32,000 bases of DNA from Gammaproteobacteria bacterium. Its GTDB lineage: Bacteria > Pseudomonadota > Gammaproteobacteria > JBIOEC01. Within the stretch, counting starts at the first letter, position 1; every line of letters starts with the position of its first letter. Shown one piece after another: positions 1-21,712 of the stretch. A model generated the notes under the pieces. The model saw nothing but the letters and a program-made list of their open reading frames with translations, searched no databases and was not told the DNA's origin. Made by a program: the position numbers and the translations under genes. The stretch covers positions 630,001 through 662,000 of the forward strand of contig OZ257143.1 of NCBI GenBank assembly GCA_965279305.1. Reading direction: 5' to 3'.

Positions 1-42
1 GGCATAAAAATTATTGCAGTCGACTAGCGCAAATATAGGCAT
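1..42 (-). CDS. umuC: Y-family translesion DNA polymerase UmuC-like; only the first 14 codons are in the window (gene runs off the left edge)
   Basis: Hand translation of the reverse complement of 1..42 gives MPIFALVDCNNFYA, matching the conserved UmuC N-terminus (FALxDxNxFYASCE). An AAGGA Shine-Dalgarno-like motif (complement of 49-53) lies 6 nt upstream of the ATG. Absent from the ORF track because it is truncated. Confidence 0.55.
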   Translation of the reverse strand, partial: MPIFALVDCNNFYA

Positions 43-101
43 GATGGTTCCTTGCTTTTAATAAAGAATATCGTACAATAATCAAAATAGCAAGGTAGAA
101 T

Positions 102-890
102 TTAGGGGATGTGGGCGTGAGTGATAAGGCCAGCGAGTGTCCAGGCTTTTAATAATGAAGCCGCGCGTAGTGCAATATGTTCATCTTCTTGTGAATAGTT
201 AGCTAAGCCTTCACATATTTCTCCAAAGGTAGCGCCTGCTTGCATGGCATCGATAGCCCAGGCTTCATCTTCTGCTATAGAGCAAAAGTGATTCATTAAA
301 TCGTTTCGCCAAAAAATCCAAGGTACAGGTGTTTCATTTATTTCAGGCGCAGGCGGATCTTCTTCATTATTTAAGGCTTGCCATAGCGCTACTACATTCC
401 ACGATAAATTGACGCGATGCAAAGAAGGATGCGGCTGTAATTTCATATTTATCCAATCGTTAGGTGATATATGAGACAGCGTTTCTATAGATATACTCTG
501 TGCATTTTCTGAATCAAATACCAGCGCCATTAACCATTCTATTTGTGCTAGTTCGGCTAGGTATGGATAGTTTTGATAAACACGGTGTTGTTTTAAAAAA
601 ACAGCTAAATGATCTCCAAACCAGCGGATAGAACGAAAGGTAGAAGGATAAACATCGGCATATTCATTTCCCAAAGTGTTAAATCTTTCCTCTCCCATAT
701 AGATTAAAAGGGCTGGATAGGTAATGGTTAATGTTTCAATTAAACGAGATTTGTAAGCATGGGCATAAATAGCTAAGCGTTTTTCTGCAGAGACATTTTT
801 TGTGCTGACAATGGAATTTTTAATTTGTAGTTTTTGTGGATCTAATAAGTGTTGTTGAAATGCGTTTTGTAATAAGGGTAGTTCGCTCAT
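102..890 (-). CDS. DUF2063 domain protein, BufC/HvfC-like partner of the MNIO enzyme in RiPP maturation
   Basis: 262-aa ORF whose start overlaps the stop of the upstream DUF692 gene by 4 nt (887-890). N-terminus LLQNAFQQHLLDP and overall length are typical of DUF2063. DUF692-DUF2063 pairing is the established bufferin/Hvf/methanobactin-like arrangement. Confidence 0.75.
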   Translation of the reverse strand: MSELPLLQNAFQQHLLDPQKLQIKNSIVSTKNVSAEKRLAIYAHAYKSRLIETLTITYPALLIYMGEERFNTLGNEYADVYPSTFRSIRWFGDHLAVFLKQHRVYQNYPYLAELAQIEWLMALVFDSENAQSISIETLSHISPNDWINMKLQPHPSLHRVNLSWNVVALWQALNNEEDPPAPEINETPVPWIFWRNDLMNHFCSIAEDEAWAIDAMQAGATFGEICEGLANYSQEDEHIALRAASLLKAWTLAGLITHAHIP

Positions 891-1738
891 GCCGGTGTTT
901 CCATAGCTAAATGGTGTTTTGCTATTTGACGTGCATGATTAAGTTCTTTTATAAGCTCTTCTAGAGGAGGAATATGATCATCACGCTCAATCATAGTAGA
1001 AATGGGGCCAAAACGTTTTAGTGTTTTGTCATAGAGATCCCAGACCGGATCGACAATAGGATGATCATGTGTATCAATAATGCAATCATCTAAACGAGAA
1101 TGTCCTGCTAAATGAATTTGAAACACTCTATCTAACGGCAATGCGTTAATATAATCTACAGGATTAAATTCATGATTAACGGAACTTACATAAACATTAT
1201 TAACATCTAATAAAATAAGACAATCCGCTTTTTCGGCAATAGCAGATAAAAATTCCCATTCAGACATTACCGATTGTTGATAGGTAATATAGCTCGAGAG
1301 ATTTTCAATTAAGATGCGTTGTCCTAAAAAATCTTGTACTTGATGTATACGAGAAGCAACATGATTGATGGCTTCTTCTGTGTAAGGTAATGGTAATAAA
1401 TCATGCATGTTTTTTTGATCAACACCTGTCCAACAAAGATGATCCGATAACCATTGAGGTTTTACCCGCTCCATTAAAGTTTTCACTTGGCGCAAATAAT
1501 CCCAATCGATAGGATCGGTGCTGCCTATCGATAAAGACACACCATGCATTACCATAGGATATTTTTCGCGAATTCGATCCAGATAATATAACGGTTTGCC
1601 GCCAGGAACTAAGTAATTTTCGGTTAAAATTTCGAGCCAATCTACAGGAGGGTTGTTATTCAAAATAGCCTCGTAATGATCGGGTCTTAAACCTAATCCG
1701 AAGCCTAAAAATTTTTTGTGTGGGGTTGAATATGTCAT
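887..1738 (-). CDS. DUF692 (UPF0276) multinuclear non-heme iron oxidase (MNIO), BufB/HvfB/MbnB-like peptide-modifying enzyme
   Basis: 283-aa ORF with family-typical motifs: GFGLGLRPDHY, WLEILTENY, MHGVSLSIGS, SDHLCW, HDLLPLPYTEEA, LIENLSSY, LLDVNNVYVSSVNH, HLAGH, IDTHDHPI and MIERDD. Confidence 0.9.
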   Translation of the reverse strand: MTYSTPHKKFLGFGLGLRPDHYEAILNNNPPVDWLEILTENYLVPGGKPLYYLDRIREKYPMVMHGVSLSIGSTDPIDWDYLRQVKTLMERVKPQWLSDHLCWTGVDQKNMHDLLPLPYTEEAINHVASRIHQVQDFLGQRILIENLSSYITYQQSVMSEWEFLSAIAEKADCLILLDVNNVYVSSVNHEFNPVDYINALPLDRVFQIHLAGHSRLDDCIIDTHDHPIVDPVWDLYDKTLKRFGPISTMIERDDHIPPLEELIKELNHARQIAKHHLAMETPA

Positions 1739-1754: not shown

Positions 1755-1785
1755 AAAGCGCGCTTAGACTAGCCAAACGCGCTTT
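1755..1785 (-). terminator. Hairpin between the precursor gene and the MNIO gene (possible partial terminator or attenuator)
   Basis: AAAGCGCG (1755-1762) pairs with CGCGCTTT (1778-1785) around a 15-nt loop. On the minus-strand RNA the GC core is followed by UUUUU and preceded by an A-tract. Confidence 0.4.
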
Positions 1786-1805: not shown

Positions 1806-2090
1806 TTATTGATTATTTTGGTTCATATGATCTTTGATCATTGTGCCGCCTTTAGCTTTACAATCAGCTGCAGACATTTCCATAACGCCTTTACCTTTGC
1901 AAGAATTCATTCCTTTGCAAGAGTTCATTGATGTTTTGCATTGACCGTGGCCTTTACATGAGTTAACACCTTCACATTTAACCATGTGGTTTGTGCCCAT
2001 ATTAGCGTAAGCAGAAGAAGCAACAATTGCAGTAAATGCAAGAGCAGCGGCAGCAGCAACAGTTTTAGTAACAGACTTTGTATTGTTCAT
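1806..2090 (-). CDS. Sec-signal-bearing six-cysteine precursor peptide (bufferin / HvfA-like RiPP precursor)
   Basis: 94 aa. N-terminal signal peptide (KTVAAAAALAFTAIVASSAYA|N), then a 65-residue Lys/Met/His-rich region with 6 Cys in repeated contexts (VKCEG, NSCKG, GQCKT, NSCKG, NSCKG, ADCKA). GGAG Shine-Dalgarno 8 nt upstream. Lies directly upstream of the DUF692/DUF2063 genes. Confidence 0.85.
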   Translation of the reverse strand: MNNTKSVTKTVAAAAALAFTAIVASSAYANMGTNHMVKCEGVNSCKGHGQCKTSMNSCKGMNSCKGKGVMEMSAADCKAKGGTMIKDHMNQNNQ

Positions 2091-2148
2091 AAATTAGCTC
2101 CATTTGATTATGTTGATGACTAGTTTACTACTTAGTACTTCAAAATCG

Positions 2149-2176
2149 ATAATAGAGGTTTGGCATTAAAAGTCAA
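2149..2176 (-). promoter_or_regulatory. Putative sigma70 promoter for the precursor/MNIO operon
   Basis: On the minus strand: TTGACT (complement of 2171-2176), 16-nt spacer, TATTAT (complement of 2149-2154), about 55 nt upstream of the precursor ATG. Confidence 0.35.
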
Positions 2177-2205: not shown

Positions 2206-2304
2206 ATGGAAAAACGTATGAATTTAAAACAATATCGCAGTAAAAGAAATTTTAATAAAACACCGGAGCCTAGCAAAAAAAAGAGTTTAGAAAAAGCTAA
2301 ATAA
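2206..2304 (+). pseudogene. Relic of the N-terminus of a LigD 3'-phosphoesterase domain (32 codons)
   Basis: Hand translation gives MEKRMNLKQYRSKRNFNKTPEPSKKKSLEKAK*. LxxYxxKRxFxxTPEP is the signature N-terminal motif of the bacterial NHEJ ligase LigD phosphoesterase domain. The ORF stops before the catalytic core and its last 8 nt overlap the pabA 3' end. Confidence 0.4.
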
Positions 2305-2866: not shown

Positions 2867-4302
2867 ACATCTACCAATGCTTTTTTTAATGCTTGAGATT
2901 TAACTAGGGTTTCTTGGTATTCTTTTTTAGGATCAGAGTCTAAGGTAACCGCACCACCCGCTTGAAAAGTGACCGTATTATTTTGTATCGCAAATGTTCG
3001 AATAATAATAGACATATCCATATCACCGGTAAAACTAATAAAACCCAAACTTCCACAGTAAGGCCCTCGGGAATGTGGCTCTAGCTCTGCAATAATTTTC
3101 ATTGCTCGAATTTTAGGAGCGCCCGTAATAGAACCGCCAGGCAAAGTGGCTTTAAGTAAATCTATTGCATGCAAAGAAGGTTTTAATTGGCCTTTAATGA
3201 CAGATACTAAATGATGAACACTTTCATAAGTTTCTAGACCGCAAAGAGTTTCTACTACAATGCTATCATCTTCGCATACGCGCGATAAATCATTGCGCAT
3301 CAGATCTACAATCATGACATTTTCAGCGATGTCTTTTTTGCTTTGAATTAATTGAGCGCGCAATTGCTCATCTTGCTCTGGTGTGGATCCTCTTTTAATG
3401 GTTCCTTTGATGGGGCGTGTTTCTACCCTACCCTGACTCACAGAAATAAATCGTTCTGGAGAGGCGGATGCAATAATCGTATTACCCCAATTCATATAAG
3501 CCGAAAACGGCGCTGGGTTGGTGTAATGCAATTTTTCGTATAGTTTAAAAGGAGCAAAAGTATTGTCTAACGTAACAGTAAAACGCTGCGATAAATTCAC
3601 TTCAAAAATATCGCCTTCTCTAATGTAATACTGCGCTTTTTTAACAACATCCATATAGCTGTTTTCATTAAAATGAGAATAAATATCGCTGGCTGCACAA
3701 AAATGATGAGAAGGAATATTTTGTTTAGATGGAGAAGCTAATAAAATTTTTACTGTTTGTAAACGTTGTTGTGCACGTGCTTGTTGACGCTCTCCTACCC
3801 TTTCTGGGAAGCCCGTAGAAATAATCCAGCAGCGTTTTGTTTTATGATCAAAGCTAATCACCACATCATAAAAACCAATGGCCAGATCCGGAAAATTCAT
3901 ATCATCTATGGTGCTAGGTATTTCTTCTATATAGTGAGCCATTTCATAAGAAAAAAAACCAGCAGCTCCGCCTTGAAAAGGAGGTAACTCCGATGAAAGA
4001 GTTGGCATGGAAAAACAAATTAACTTTTCTTTTAATAGTGTAAAAGGGTCGATAACTTCGCTATTCTCTTCTAGCCAGTGTTTATTTTTGATGGTAATCG
4101 TTTCAAAAGGATCAAATACAATATAACTATATCGATTGGTTTCTTGAAAAGCATTTTTACTATTTGCGCTATCTAGAAAAATAGCGCCGGAGTGATGAGC
4201 GACCAATGAAAATAAAGCAATAGGTTCTGTGTAAGGAATTTCTTCAACACACGATGCTGGTAAAATATTTTTTGGTAAAACGTTAGAACGAGTGCACAAC
4301 AT
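2863..4302 (-). CDS. pabB: Aminodeoxychorismate synthase component I
   Basis: 479 aa chorismate-binding enzyme (FEVNLSQRF, SPERF, IKGT, MIVDLMRND, PGGSITGAPK, RGPYCGS). Paired with pabA. Confidence 0.8.
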   Translation of the reverse strand: MLCTRSNVLPKNILPASCVEEIPYTEPIALFSLVAHHSGAIFLDSANSKNAFQETNRYSYIVFDPFETITIKNKHWLEENSEVIDPFTLLKEKLICFSMPTLSSELPPFQGGAAGFFSYEMAHYIEEIPSTIDDMNFPDLAIGFYDVVISFDHKTKRCWIISTGFPERVGERQQARAQQRLQTVKILLASPSKQNIPSHHFCAASDIYSHFNENSYMDVVKKAQYYIREGDIFEVNLSQRFTVTLDNTFAPFKLYEKLHYTNPAPFSAYMNWGNTIIASASPERFISVSQGRVETRPIKGTIKRGSTPEQDEQLRAQLIQSKKDIAENVMIVDLMRNDLSRVCEDDSIVVETLCGLETYESVHHLVSVIKGQLKPSLHAIDLLKATLPGGSITGAPKIRAMKIIAELEPHSRGPYCGSLGFISFTGDMDMSIIIRTFAIQNNTVTFQAGGAVTLDSDPKKEYQETLVKSQALKKALVDV

Positions 4303-4798
4303 GAATAACTACACCCCAAATATACGCACCAGTTTCTGGATTAATTTCGATAGGAGAAAATTGTGGATTTTCTGGCATTAGCCATTGATGATTTTTTTTA
4401 ATACTCAAACGTTTTACTGTCAGCTGTCCATCTATTGCAGCAATGACAATTTTGCCATCAGTCGGTTCTAAACTTCTATCAACCACTAATAGATCACCTT
4501 CATGAATATTGGCACCTATCATGGAATCGCCGGTAGCACGCACTAAAAAAGTGGCGGCAGGATGTTTTATTAAATACTGATGTAAATCTAATTTTCCTTC
4601 CATAAAATCATCGGCAGGAGAAGGAAAGCCCGCTTGCACTTTTGAACTATATAAAGGTAATCGATGCCCACGATGTGCAATAAATTCCGATACTTCTGTG
4701 ACTAGGCTGAGTGGAATACGGATAGGTTTAGTCGATTCGCCATGAGGCCCCTGCCCTTTAGGTCTGCCTGCACCGGTTCGTGCGCCGCCTCTTGCCAT
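4283..4798 (-). CDS. umuD: UmuD-like S24 self-cleaving peptidase (polymerase V accessory subunit family) with a long Gly/Arg-rich N-terminal extension
   Basis: The C-terminal ~115 aa align by eye with E. coli UmuD: VQAG|FPSPADD cleavage region, GDSM catalytic Ser, TVKRL catalytic Lys, and WGVVIHVV. About 56 residues precede the predicted Ala-Gly cleavage site, versus 24 in E. coli UmuD. Confidence 0.8.
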   Translation of the reverse strand: MARGGARTGAGRPKGQGPHGESTKPIRIPLSLVTEVSEFIAHRGHRLPLYSSKVQAGFPSPADDFMEGKLDLHQYLIKHPAATFLVRATGDSMIGANIHEGDLLVVDRSLEPTDGKIVIAAIDGQLTVKRLSIKKNHQWLMPENPQFSPIEINPETGAYIWGVVIHVVHSF

Positions 4799-4959: not shown

Positions 4960-5898
4960 ATGACGACAGCGTTAACCCTTTCCCAACAGCATTTACCTAC
5001 CCTGCCCTCCACCTTATTGGACGGCGCCTTAGCCGGCCCAGGCGGCAGTATTGATGCGTATATTAGTCGCGTCAGTAAGATTCCCATGCTTTCATTTGAA
5101 GAAGAACAACAACTGGCGCAACAGTGGTTCTATGAAGAAAACGTAGACGCGGCTAAACAATTGGTGATTAGCAATTTACGTTTTGTCGTACAAATTGCGC
5201 GCGGCTATATGGGATACGGATTAGCATTACCGGATTTAATTCAAGAAGGTAATGTGGGATTAATGAAAGCAGTTAAACGTTTTGATCCTGCTGTGGGTGT
5301 TCGTTTAGTGTCGTTTGCAGTGCATTGGATTAAATCGGAAATTCACGATTACGTTATTCGTAACTGGCGAATTGTGCGTATCGCTACTACCAAATCACAA
5401 CGTAAATTATTTTTTAAATTACGGGGCTCTAAAAAAAGATTAGGCTGGTTCACTGAAGATGAAATGAATCAAGTGGCTCAAGAATTAAATGTGAGCGTAA
5501 ATGATGTGCGTGAAATGGAAAAAAGATTGCAAGCGCATGACGATTCATTTGATTCAGAAGTATCAGATAGCGAAGAAGATAGCTACACATTATCTCCAGC
5601 GGATTATTTAACAAATGCAGAAGGTGATCCCTTGGTTCAGTTAGAGCAATGGGAAGAAGAGCAGCAAAAAGAAAAATCATTAGCTAAAATCTGGCAAGTA
5701 TTAACGCCTAGAGAGCAAGATATTATTCAATATCGTTGGTTGGCAGAAGAAAAATCTACTTTACATGATTTGGCTGCACGTTTTAATATTTCAGCAGAAA
5801 GAGTGCGCCAAGTAGAGCAGAATGCAATGAAAAAACTACAGAAATTGTTGCCATCAAGCGACAGTACGCTTGGCAATGCATTGAGCAGCGATTCGTAA
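4960..5898 (+). CDS. rpoH: RNA polymerase sigma-32 (heat-shock sigma factor)
   Basis: 312 aa with region 2 (LVISNLRFVVQIARGY, DLIQEGNVGLMKAVKRFDP), the RpoH box (QRKLFFKLR) and region 4.2 (ERVRQVEQNAMKKL). Confidence 0.92.
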   Translation: MTTALTLSQQHLPTLPSTLLDGALAGPGGSIDAYISRVSKIPMLSFEEEQQLAQQWFYEENVDAAKQLVISNLRFVVQIARGYMGYGLALPDLIQEGNVGLMKAVKRFDPAVGVRLVSFAVHWIKSEIHDYVIRNWRIVRIATTKSQRKLFFKLRGSKKRLGWFTEDEMNQVAQELNVSVNDVREMEKRLQAHDDSFDSEVSDSEEDSYTLSPADYLTNAEGDPLVQLEQWEEEQQKEKSLAKIWQVLTPREQDIIQYRWLAEEKSTLHDLAARFNISAERVRQVEQNAMKKLQKLLPSSDSTLGNALSSDS

Positions 5899-20683: not shown

Positions 20684-21712
20684 ATGAGAAAAAAAGCGGC
20701 GACAGTACGTGCCCCACGCCCAGAGCCAGCTAGCCATTTATCTGCATCTGCATCTGAAAGAACAGAGAATGCCAAAAAACTACTACCTCAATTAATTCCG
20801 TTAGCAAAAAAATATGATGCGGCACATCCTGCTTACCCTCCTGTTTTACAAGTAATTAAAGAGACGGTTCAGTATGCTCCCAGAGGAAATCGTGAAGCAC
20901 AAAATAGAGCGGGTAATTTTTATTATTCTGGGGAGTATAATATTCCCCAGAATTTTGAATTAGCGCTCTATTGGTTTAATGAAGCAGCTAACCGAGGACA
21001 TTCCGCATCAAGATTACAAGTTGCAAAAATGCTTCAAGAAGGTGAAGGTACTCAACCTGACAAGGCAGCCGCTGCCCAATGGTATGAGTTGCTTGCAGAT
21101 GAGGGCAATTTAGTGGCATTAAATAATCTGGCAATGATGTATAAAAATGGGGATGGCGTACCGCAAGATGATGAGAAGGCTTATTATTATATGTTTACAG
21201 CAGCCACATATGGTGATCCTCTCGCCCATTTTAATTTAGGAAAGTTGTTTGAGCAAGGGAGCGGGCAAACAAAAGTTGATCTAAATGAAGCTGAATCTTG
21301 GTATAGAAGAGCAGCTGCTAAAGGTCATCCGGATGCTCTAAATAATTTGGGTGTTATCAAAGCTAAAGGGGCACATCTATCAGAAATGCTTGGTTTAAAT
21401 TCGAAACCGGAAGTGGATGAGGCTATATCGATATTTACAACTGCAACTAGGCAGGGAAATGGTCTTGCTGCTTTTAATTTGGCACAGTTTTATCGATTCG
21501 GCTGTGTGGTAGAACAAAATGATCAAAGAGCTTTGGATTTACTTTCTTTAGCGGCAGATAGAGGTGTTGAACAAGCGATTATTGCGCGCAGAGAAATGAA
21601 CTCTGATGGTAAGCGAAAAAGGGATGATGCTGATATATCGGGGTCATCATCACCTGAACCCGAACCCAAAAGAGTTGCTGCGGGATCTGCACGTCCAGCA
21701 GGCCCCGCGTAG
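20684..21712 (+). CDS. Sel1/SLR repeat protein with no signal peptide and basic/Pro-rich disordered termini (candidate secreted effector)
   Basis: 342 aa. About six Sel1-like repeats (for example AQNRAGNFYYSG..ALYWFNEAANRGH, ALNNLAMMYKNGDGVPQD and AESWYRRAAAKGHPDALNNLG). The N-terminal ~45 aa and C-terminal ~40 aa are low complexity. AAGGAG Shine-Dalgarno upstream. Confidence 0.8.
   Translation: MRKKAATVRAPRPEPASHLSASASERTENAKKLLPQLIPLAKKYDAAHPAYPPVLQVIKETVQYAPRGNREAQNRAGNFYYSGEYNIPQNFELALYWFNEAANRGHSASRLQVAKMLQEGEGTQPDKAAAAQWYELLADEGNLVALNNLAMMYKNGDGVPQDDEKAYYYMFTAATYGDPLAHFNLGKLFEQGSGQTKVDLNEAESWYRRAAAKGHPDALNNLGVIKAKGAHLSEMLGLNSKPEVDEAISIFTTATRQGNGLAAFNLAQFYRFGCVVEQNDQRALDLLSLAADRGVEQAIIARREMNSDGKRKRDDADISGSSSPEPEPKRVAAGSARPAGPA

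Follow-up and report, generated by a model that had tools for sequence, protein, structure and literature searches.

Which kind of peptide is encoded by a short, Cys-rich gene lying near one end of a 32,000-nucleotide stretch of DNA from a Gammaproteobacteria bacterium (contig OZ257143.1 of assembly GCA_965279305.1, positions 630,001 to 662,000; hereafter the window), and which of its six Cys residues would be handed to a modifying enzyme? Judged by its sequence, this gene, at 1806..2090, is bufA2, a regular member of the BufA2/Buf2 family, which was described in 2024, and it heads what reads as a three-gene operon, bufA2-bufB-bufC, without a DoxX (bufD) gene. We consider it quite probable that bufA2 encodes a copper-binding, bufferin-2-type ribosomally synthesized and posttranslationally modified peptide (RiPP) that is matured by BufB and BufC, with the four central Cys being turned into 5-thiooxazoles. 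What our analysis establishes is the family membership of the three genes, the conservation of their motifs, the conservation of putative iron ligands and of D253 in BufB, the D254 signature of that enzyme, and the layout of the operon.

When the 94-residue product was compared with NCBIfam, it matched NF050166 (BufA2 family periplasmic bufferin-type metallophore) at 83.8 bits (cut-off 60, E 7e-24), with residues 11-84 aligning to model positions 4-78 of 79 and no change in length; the comparison with the founding Caulobacter BufA2 was made through this model, not pairwise. With the E-value limit raised to 10, no other NCBIfam family scored meaningfully, and Pfam PF10048 (DUF2282/BufA1) gave no match at the same limit. 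The four-Cys layout of BufA1 does not fit a protein that carries six, and the KC motif (Lys before Cys, in EGKCG-type repeats) is absent from the sequence. Set against the BufA1, BufA2 and HvfA families, the protein thus passes the BufA2 model and fails both PF10048 and the HvfA-type features. A preliminary description of this DNA, made from the letters alone, had seen in the peptide the core of a signal-peptide-bearing RiPP precursor that differs from DUF2282/BufA1, and both points are borne out, the first by family membership and the second by PF10048. Its further idea of a variant substrate class did not survive: a separate new class is ruled out by the NF050166 match and by the 1113 family representatives, two-domain 12-Cys forms included, that matched the core at E<=1e-3 in an HMMER scan of 1.84 billion cluster representatives. 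Another search, of 5.8 billion proteins, returned 701 BufA2 homologues at E<=1e-3. These counts, and the two-domain forms, agree with the published description of Buf2 (BUF_6/12Cys), in which 90% of members have six Cys and the others twelve (PMC12452194). The exact sequence of the window BufA2 is not on record in the public collection, where the nearest entry is 96% identical, and no second bufferin-like small Cys-rich ORF (open reading frame) was found within the window.

The precursor gene and the parts of it that matter for the argument are these:

1806..2090, minus strand: bufA2 ORF, precursor of a bufferin-2-type peptide, 285 nt with the stop codon included, 94 aa
2004..2090, minus strand: predicted Sec-type signal peptide, aa 1-29, MNNTKSVTK / TVAAAAALAFTAIVASS / AYA, from the sequence pattern
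1809..2003, minus strand: BufA2 core peptide, 65 aa, with 6 Cys, 8 Met, 3 His and 9 Lys
1893..1964, minus strand: central segment, aa 43-66, with Cys II-V (C45, C51, C58 and C64) in CK(G/T), predicted 5-thiooxazole sites
1974..1976, minus strand: codon of Cys I (C39, VKCEG), predicted disulfide partner; invariant, with Lys at +1 in 0/55 loci
1860..1862, minus strand: codon of Cys VI (C77, ADCKA), predicted disulfide partner; invariant, with a varying residue at +1
1911-1928 and 1893-1910, minus strand: two MNSCKG units, matching the family consensus NxCKG-xNSCKG

The product reads MNNTKSVTKTVAAAAALAFTAIVASSAYA up to the predicted cleavage site and NMGTNHMVKCEGVNSCKGHGQCKTSMNSCKGMNSCKGKGVMEMSAADCKAKGGTMIKDHMNQNNQ beyond it. 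Its signal peptide has n, h and c regions with AYA at aa 27-29, as read from the sequence pattern; homologues have equivalent N-termini, and reading of the signal peptide turned up no lipobox. Translation of the ORF confirmed several details of the preliminary description, namely the predicted cleavage of AYA from the following N (between aa 29 and 30), which leaves a core of 65 residues; the six Cys in the contexts VKCEG, NSCKG, GQCKT, NSCKG, NSCKG and ADCKA, in that order; the run SMNSCKG-MNSCKG (aa 54-66); and the eight Met and three His, including those of NHMVK, GVMEMS and IKDHM. The Cys stand at aa 39, 45, 51, 58, 64 and 77, with spacings of 6, 6, 7, 6 and 13. For the unmodified core, the predicted monoisotopic mass is 6907.98 Da, and it would fall to 6889.84 Da with four 5-thiooxazoles and one disulfide.

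The Cys pattern proved to be a property of the family. All six Cys were kept in the 120 best homologues (120/120), and a six-Cys precursor stood directly upstream of bufB in at least 55 of 80 loci picked via BufB similarity alone, the figure being a lower bound because some high-GC loci (e.g., L012, L013, L015 and L024) gave spurious ORFs. In an alignment of 42 sequences, the residues C39, G41, N43, C45, K46, G47, C51, C58, N62, C64, K65, G66, G68 and C77 were invariant, and the consensus was VxCxGVNSCKGxSxCKTAxNxCKGxNSCKGKGxxxMSxxDCKAKGG. The tandem MNSCKG repeat, which the preliminary description had taken for a duplication visible also in the DNA, is indeed present, with 18-nt units that are 16/18 identical (17/18 in the register 1894-1911 / 1912-1929) and that in the 16/18 comparison differ only at synonymous third positions. 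A recent local duplication is nonetheless ruled out: the units are invariant columns of the family, conforming to NxCKGxNSCKG, and their DNA identity is mostly forced by the peptide. Since the identical peptide already dictates about 13 of every 18 bases, the repetition in the DNA carries little information beyond that in the protein. A Met ahead of the second unit (CKGMNSCKG) was present in 49/120 of the closest homologues, but at just 1/55 BufB-selected loci.

The residue that follows each Cys was then used to ask which of the six are likely substrates. At the BufB-selected loci, Lys occupied the +1 position of Cys II in 55/55 cases, of Cys III in 42/55, of Cys IV in 48/55 and of Cys V in 51/55. 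Conversely, it followed Cys I at 0/55 of these loci (and in 1/120 of the closest homologues) and Cys VI at 7/55 (48/120). This split between Cys II-V and Cys I/VI fits mass spectrometry of Caulobacter Buf2, where Cys I and VI escape modification and are believed to pair in a disulfide, while each of the four central Cys is lighter by 4 Da and forms a 5-thiooxazole (PMC11626156). The repeated context of Cys, Lys and a small residue, proposed earlier as an enzyme recognition motif, is therefore a real motif of the family, one for which the adjoining BufB has a matching Asp; precursors with this repeated context are known as the "Cys-Lys" group of captophorins (PMC13097082). The accompanying view of all six Cys as enzyme targets holds for Cys II-V, whose CK context is conserved; it gives way for Cys I and VI, which lack a conserved Lys and are the ones left unmodified in Caulobacter Buf2. 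Together, these comparisons suggest that the enzyme targets are probably fewer than six, Cys II-V being the predicted ones. A low-confidence AlphaFold2 model of the precursor (pLDDT 60.8) has a strand at aa 36-40 that includes C39 and a short helix at aa 74-79 that includes C77; in the published model of BufA1, a disulfide joins a strand and a helix, and the BufA2 model is reported to be very similar (PMC11626156).

Two other forms of precursor were seen among the related loci. Eight Berkiella-like and related loci (L008, L025, L041, L047, L052, L058, L073 and L074) carry eight-Cys Buf2 precursors that have a lipobox-like signal peptide (…ATGC|S…) and several CK-to-CA or CK-to-CS substitutions; they are probably lipoprotein-type forms of Buf2, which according to the literature make up ~16% of the family. 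At 5261-5890, the Legionella nautarum locus L057 encodes a protein of 209 aa whose 14 Cys occur in NNCKSY/NNCKSK repeats; immediately downstream comes a BufB-like MNIO (multinuclear non-heme iron oxidative enzyme) that is 67% identical to the window BufB. The L057 precursor is of a repeat-type Cys-Lys kind, unlike the compact six-Cys domain.

We next considered the enzyme that would act on the precursor:

887..1738, minus strand: bufB, MNIO maturase, 283 aa, starting 67 nt downstream of bufA2

The protein scored 392.9 bits against NCBIfam NF050167 (MNIO family bufferin maturase, MNIO_BufB; cut-off 310) and 382 bits against Pfam PF05114, and it stayed below the cut-offs of the HvfB model (297.1 bits, cut-off 360) and of the MbnB model (60.5 bits, cut-off 325). 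H65, H100, E145, D178, N181, H209, H213, D222, H224, E251 and D253 were each found in at least 97% of 76 sequences, and all of these except D253 are putative iron ligands, after the MbnB pattern. D253 we read as the counterpart of the published catalytic base. The next residue, D254, was kept in 75/76 relatives, so that the motif here is E251-R-D253-D254, as against ERDF in the HvfB-type structure 3BWW. "Cys-Lys" MNIOs have Asp at the position of FonB-Phe250 / BufB2-Asp251, with a modelled contact to the Lys of the substrate (PMC13097082), and by sequence D254 gives BufB this Asp signature, in agreement with the CK motif of its substrate BufA2.

The third gene encodes the putative partner of the enzyme:

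102..890, minus strand: bufC, DUF2063 partner protein, 262 aa, overlapping bufB by 4 nt (ATGA)

BufC matched Pfam PF09836 (DUF2063) at 60.4 bits (cut-off 27.2). Its AlphaFold2 model (pLDDT 93.8), when searched with Foldseek, retrieved TglI (8HCI_A; E 3.9e-6, probability 1.00), which is the partner of the MNIO TglH, and 3DEE, the DUF2063 archetype NGO1945 (E 1.1e-5, TMt 0.72, probability 1.00). Weak matches were obtained to RiPP recognition element (RRE) domains, e.g., those of TbiB1 and of a lasso-peptide B1 protein, and the match to MbnC was also weak (E 0.69). On the strength of the predicted model, BufC is a DUF2063/RRE-like partner of BufB, linked to solved structures by fold comparison alone.

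The mechanism that we propose takes the modified Cys, their chemistry, the export of the peptide and its copper function from homology with Caulobacter Buf2. Within the cytoplasm, the iron enzyme BufB would act together with its DUF2063/RRE-like partner BufC and, using O2, would carry out a four-electron oxidation of each of C45, C51, C58 and C64 to a 5-thiooxazole, the Lys after each target Cys being read by Asp254 of BufB. The modified precursor would then be exported by Sec and cut after AYA29; for the Caulobacter bufferins, cleavage at the predicted signal site has been shown by mass spectrometry (PMC11626156). A C39-C77 disulfide would staple a small beta/alpha fold, and the 65-aa product, kept in the periplasm, may sequester excess copper through the N and S atoms of its thiooxazoles. 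Caulobacter Buf2 has an absorbance peak near 305 nm, and its operon, which is copper-induced, is likewise without bufD (PMC11626156). Binding of copper, induction by it and protection against it are known for Caulobacter Buf1 and Buf2 alone (PMC11626156).

Several observations weigh against this reading. The chemistry at the bufA2BC locus is a prediction; the precursor model, at its pLDDT of 60.8, is too weak to support the C39-C77 disulfide; and the residue after Cys VI here is Lys (ADCKA), which could make Cys VI a substrate too. BufC falls far below the cut-off of HvfC, the sole NCBIfam partner model that it matches (36.6 vs. 142 bits), and neither phmmer nor a 29-sequence profile found a relative of it by sequence in the PDB. 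A scan of the ten neighbouring proteins turned up neither a copper regulator nor another copper gene. Finally, promoter-like sites in the region were not above those in shuffles, so the promoter call for bufA2 given below is no better than chance.

The same modified peptide might serve in a role other than copper buffering, be it against gold, cadmium, mercury or oxidative or sulphur stress, or in handing metal on to a partner protein. Gold and cadmium, as well as copper, elicit a response from related gig operons (PMC11626156); in mercury loci, Buf2 is found fused to MerC (PMC12452194); the high Met content of the core would favour soft metals generally; and, as just noted, the neighbouring proteins scanned include no copper gene or regulator. 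However, for the sole Buf2 to have been tested, Cu is an inducer but Fe, Zn and Mn are not, and that Buf2 confers protection from copper (PMC11626156), while thiooxazole peptides of several clades have been tied to copper detoxification (PMC13097082); we therefore regard another role as unlikely. It also seems distinctly improbable that all six Cys are substrates of BufB, which would give six heterocycles and no structural disulfide. Every Cys of the window protein has a small residue at +2, and Cys VI has the C-K-A context, with Lys at +1 of Cys VI in 48/120 of the closest homologues. Against this stand the rarity of Lys after Cys I in both samples and after Cys VI at the BufB-selected loci, the unmodified state of both residues in Caulobacter, and their location in the two elements, strand and helix, that a disulfide joins in the published BufA1 model.

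The precursor might instead be a Cys-rich periplasmic protein that forms three disulfides and undergoes no modification, its adjacency to bufBC being incidental or vestigial. A sizeable share of Buf precursor genes does lie away from any MNIO gene (PMC12452194), and modification at the window locus is itself predicted by homology. This account is nevertheless very unlikely given an intact bufB 67 nt downstream, which keeps its putative metal ligands and catalytic Asp and is translationally coupled to bufC, given the recurrence of the arrangement at 55/80 related loci, and given the match between D254 of BufB and the CK motif of the substrate. Equally hard to credit is the formation by BufB of oxazolone/thioamide pairs as in methanobactin, which are isomeric with, and hard to distinguish from, 5-thiooxazoles and which were the original assignment for oxazolin (PMC11252979): oxazolin has been reassigned to 5-thiooxazole by alkylation-assisted heteronuclear multiple-bond correlation (HMBC) nuclear magnetic resonance (NMR), the absorbance of bufferins at 305 nm is that seen with other 5-thiooxazole peptides (both PMC13097082), further labelling and spectroscopy preprints address the same question, and the MbnB model scores BufB far under its cut-off, as given above.

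Returning to the predicted BufB/BufC-matured, copper-binding peptide, we examined what sets this copy apart from its relatives, and the only unusual trait is the Met content. Met makes up 8 of the 65 core residues (12.3%), as against 2.8% in the long ORFs of the window (binomial p = 4e-4); the median is 1 Met per core in BufB-selected precursors and 2 in the closest 120 homologues, and eight was reached by 1/129 single-domain cluster representatives. Cys I, IV and V each have Met at -3, and the protein ends in a Met/His tail, TMIKDHM. The Met-rich core is common to the 96%-identical homologue P0001 and is weaker in P0002, L001 and L002, which have Met/His-rich C-terminal tails; the Met/His-rich form is limited to a few Legionellales-like relatives (P0001, P0002 and L002) and to rare others (P0253). 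Speculatively, Cu(I) may gain further soft ligands from the eight Met and three His. We offer only tentatively, and as rather unlikely, the idea that Met/His-rich Buf2 is a functional subvariant in which thioether and imidazole groups add Cu(I) sites or pass copper to the thiooxazoles; if true, such a form would raise the metal stoichiometry or shift the selectivity beyond that of thiooxazoles alone. The naturally Met-rich core could be used to probe cooperation of Met and His with thiooxazoles in Cu(I) binding.

The three-gene layout was the same in L001 and in the Logan contig L081, where the operon is kept in DNA that is 92% identical; the two bufA2 copies, from the window and L081, differ by five synonymous and four nonsynonymous codons, none of them at an invariant residue. 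Around and within the operon, the following signals were read:

2149..2176, minus strand: candidate sigma-70-type promoter of bufA2, TTGACT, 16-nt spacer, TATTAT, 10/12 matches
2098..2101, minus strand: putative ribosome-binding site GGAG, 7 nt upstream of the bufA2 ATG, as read from the letters
1755..1785, minus strand: predicted stem-loop in the 67-nt bufA2-bufB spacer, 13 pairs and a 5-nt loop, with UUUUU after it

The candidate promoter is identical in sequence in L081. MerR/CueR-type promoters are marked by a long spacer, which the best candidate here, with its 16-nt spacer, lacks; no convincing operator dyad was found. The stem-loop, which immediately follows the bufA2 stop codon, has a predicted energy of -17.9 kcal/mol (z = -2.47) and is likely a terminator/attenuator, or else a stabilizer of the mRNA, that would set a high ratio of precursor to enzyme, with which the weak ribosome-binding site of bufB is consistent. 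A comparison that drew on the bufA2-bufB spacers of loci L001-L080 gave a hairpin of at least 8 pairs in 54/56 related loci, with the position kept and the sequence unrelated, and in 52/56 the fold of the spacer beat 95 or more of 100 shuffles. This positional conservation suggests that the precursor-to-enzyme ratio is fixed at the level of the transcript; the two main bufferin papers do not mention the stem-loop.

The window is AT-rich (39.6% GC), and the best genomic match to its BufB, 78% identical, lies in a Legionellales metagenome-assembled genome. The neighbours of bufA2BC that were scanned are housekeeping genes (pabAB, an rpoH-like gene, a permease, alanine racemase and ATP synthase). 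Four further features were noted in the surroundings:

2207-2302, plus strand: 31-aa ORF MEKRMNLKQYRSKRNFNKTPEPSKKKSLEKA, resembling an N-terminal remnant of a LigD 3'-phosphoesterase-like gene
1-43, minus strand: umuC-like N-terminus MPIFALVDCNNFYA, just downstream of bufC and running off the window
4283-4798, minus strand: umuD-like S24 peptidase, ~4 kb upstream, overlapping the start of pabB by 20 nt
20684-21712, plus strand: 342-aa Sel1-repeat protein (Pfam PF08238, 129.7 bits)

At the site of the 31-aa ORF, L081 has a longer one of at least 69 aa that runs off the end of the contig, and the homology between the window and L081 ends near 2272, which points to an apparent deletion or rearrangement beside pabA in the window genome. 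umuC directly follows bufC in L081 as well, and in the window the usual umuDC pair is split by pabAB and bufA2BC. The Sel1-repeat protein is no more than a possible hint of a host-associated, Legionellales-like bacterium, such proteins being frequent there.

Bufferins, periplasmic peptides that buffer copper, form a very large class that has been recognized only recently, and few of them have been characterized. The present locus adds one Buf2 operon from a Legionellales-like bacterium, whose group is exposed to copper within phagocytic hosts. As a test system, bufA2BC without bufD is a clean set of three genes whose product has a precisely predicted mass, though its practical value is modest.

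Among known systems, the closest is bufferin 2 of Caulobacter vibrioides (BufA2/BufB2/BufC2, CCNA_03001-02999), with which the window locus shares a Sec signal peptide, a core of ~60-65 aa and CK at the central four of six Cys, as well as a three-gene operon without DoxX/bufD, a BufB-type MNIO and a DUF2063 partner (PMC11626156). Unlike that system, it comes from an AT-rich, Legionellales-like host, its core has eight Met and the TMIKDHM tail, and no SigF/NrsF-type regulator was seen at the window locus. Bufferin 1 (BufA1) and the gig operons of Legionella pneumophila and Cupriavidus resemble it in the pairing of an MNIO with a DUF2063 protein and in the logic of the signal peptide. The conversion of central Cys to thiooxazole, with the outer Cys in a disulfide, is known for bufferin 1 (PMC11626156) and predicted for the window locus. 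In contrast, BufA1 has four Cys with little-conserved flanking residues (PMC13097082), and bufferin 1 and gig operons usually hold DoxX (bufD) together with sigma/anti-sigma genes.

Oxazolin (HvfA), fontiphorin (FonA) and gonophorin likewise combine an MNIO and a DUF2063 partner with conversion of Cys to 5-thiooxazole and a link to copper (PMC13097082). They differ from the window BufA2 in having Lys before Cys (EGKCG 5-mers), as "Lys-Cys" captophorins, and their enzymes have Phe where the window BufB has Asp254; both the HvfB and HvfC models scored below their cut-offs here. Methanobactin (MbnA/MbnB/MbnC) is alike in that an MNIO oxidizes Cys of a ribosomal peptide to a copper ligand, whereas it has a leader in place of a Sec signal, an oxazolone/thioamide product, a secreted chalkophore as its end point and MbnC as the partner of its enzyme.

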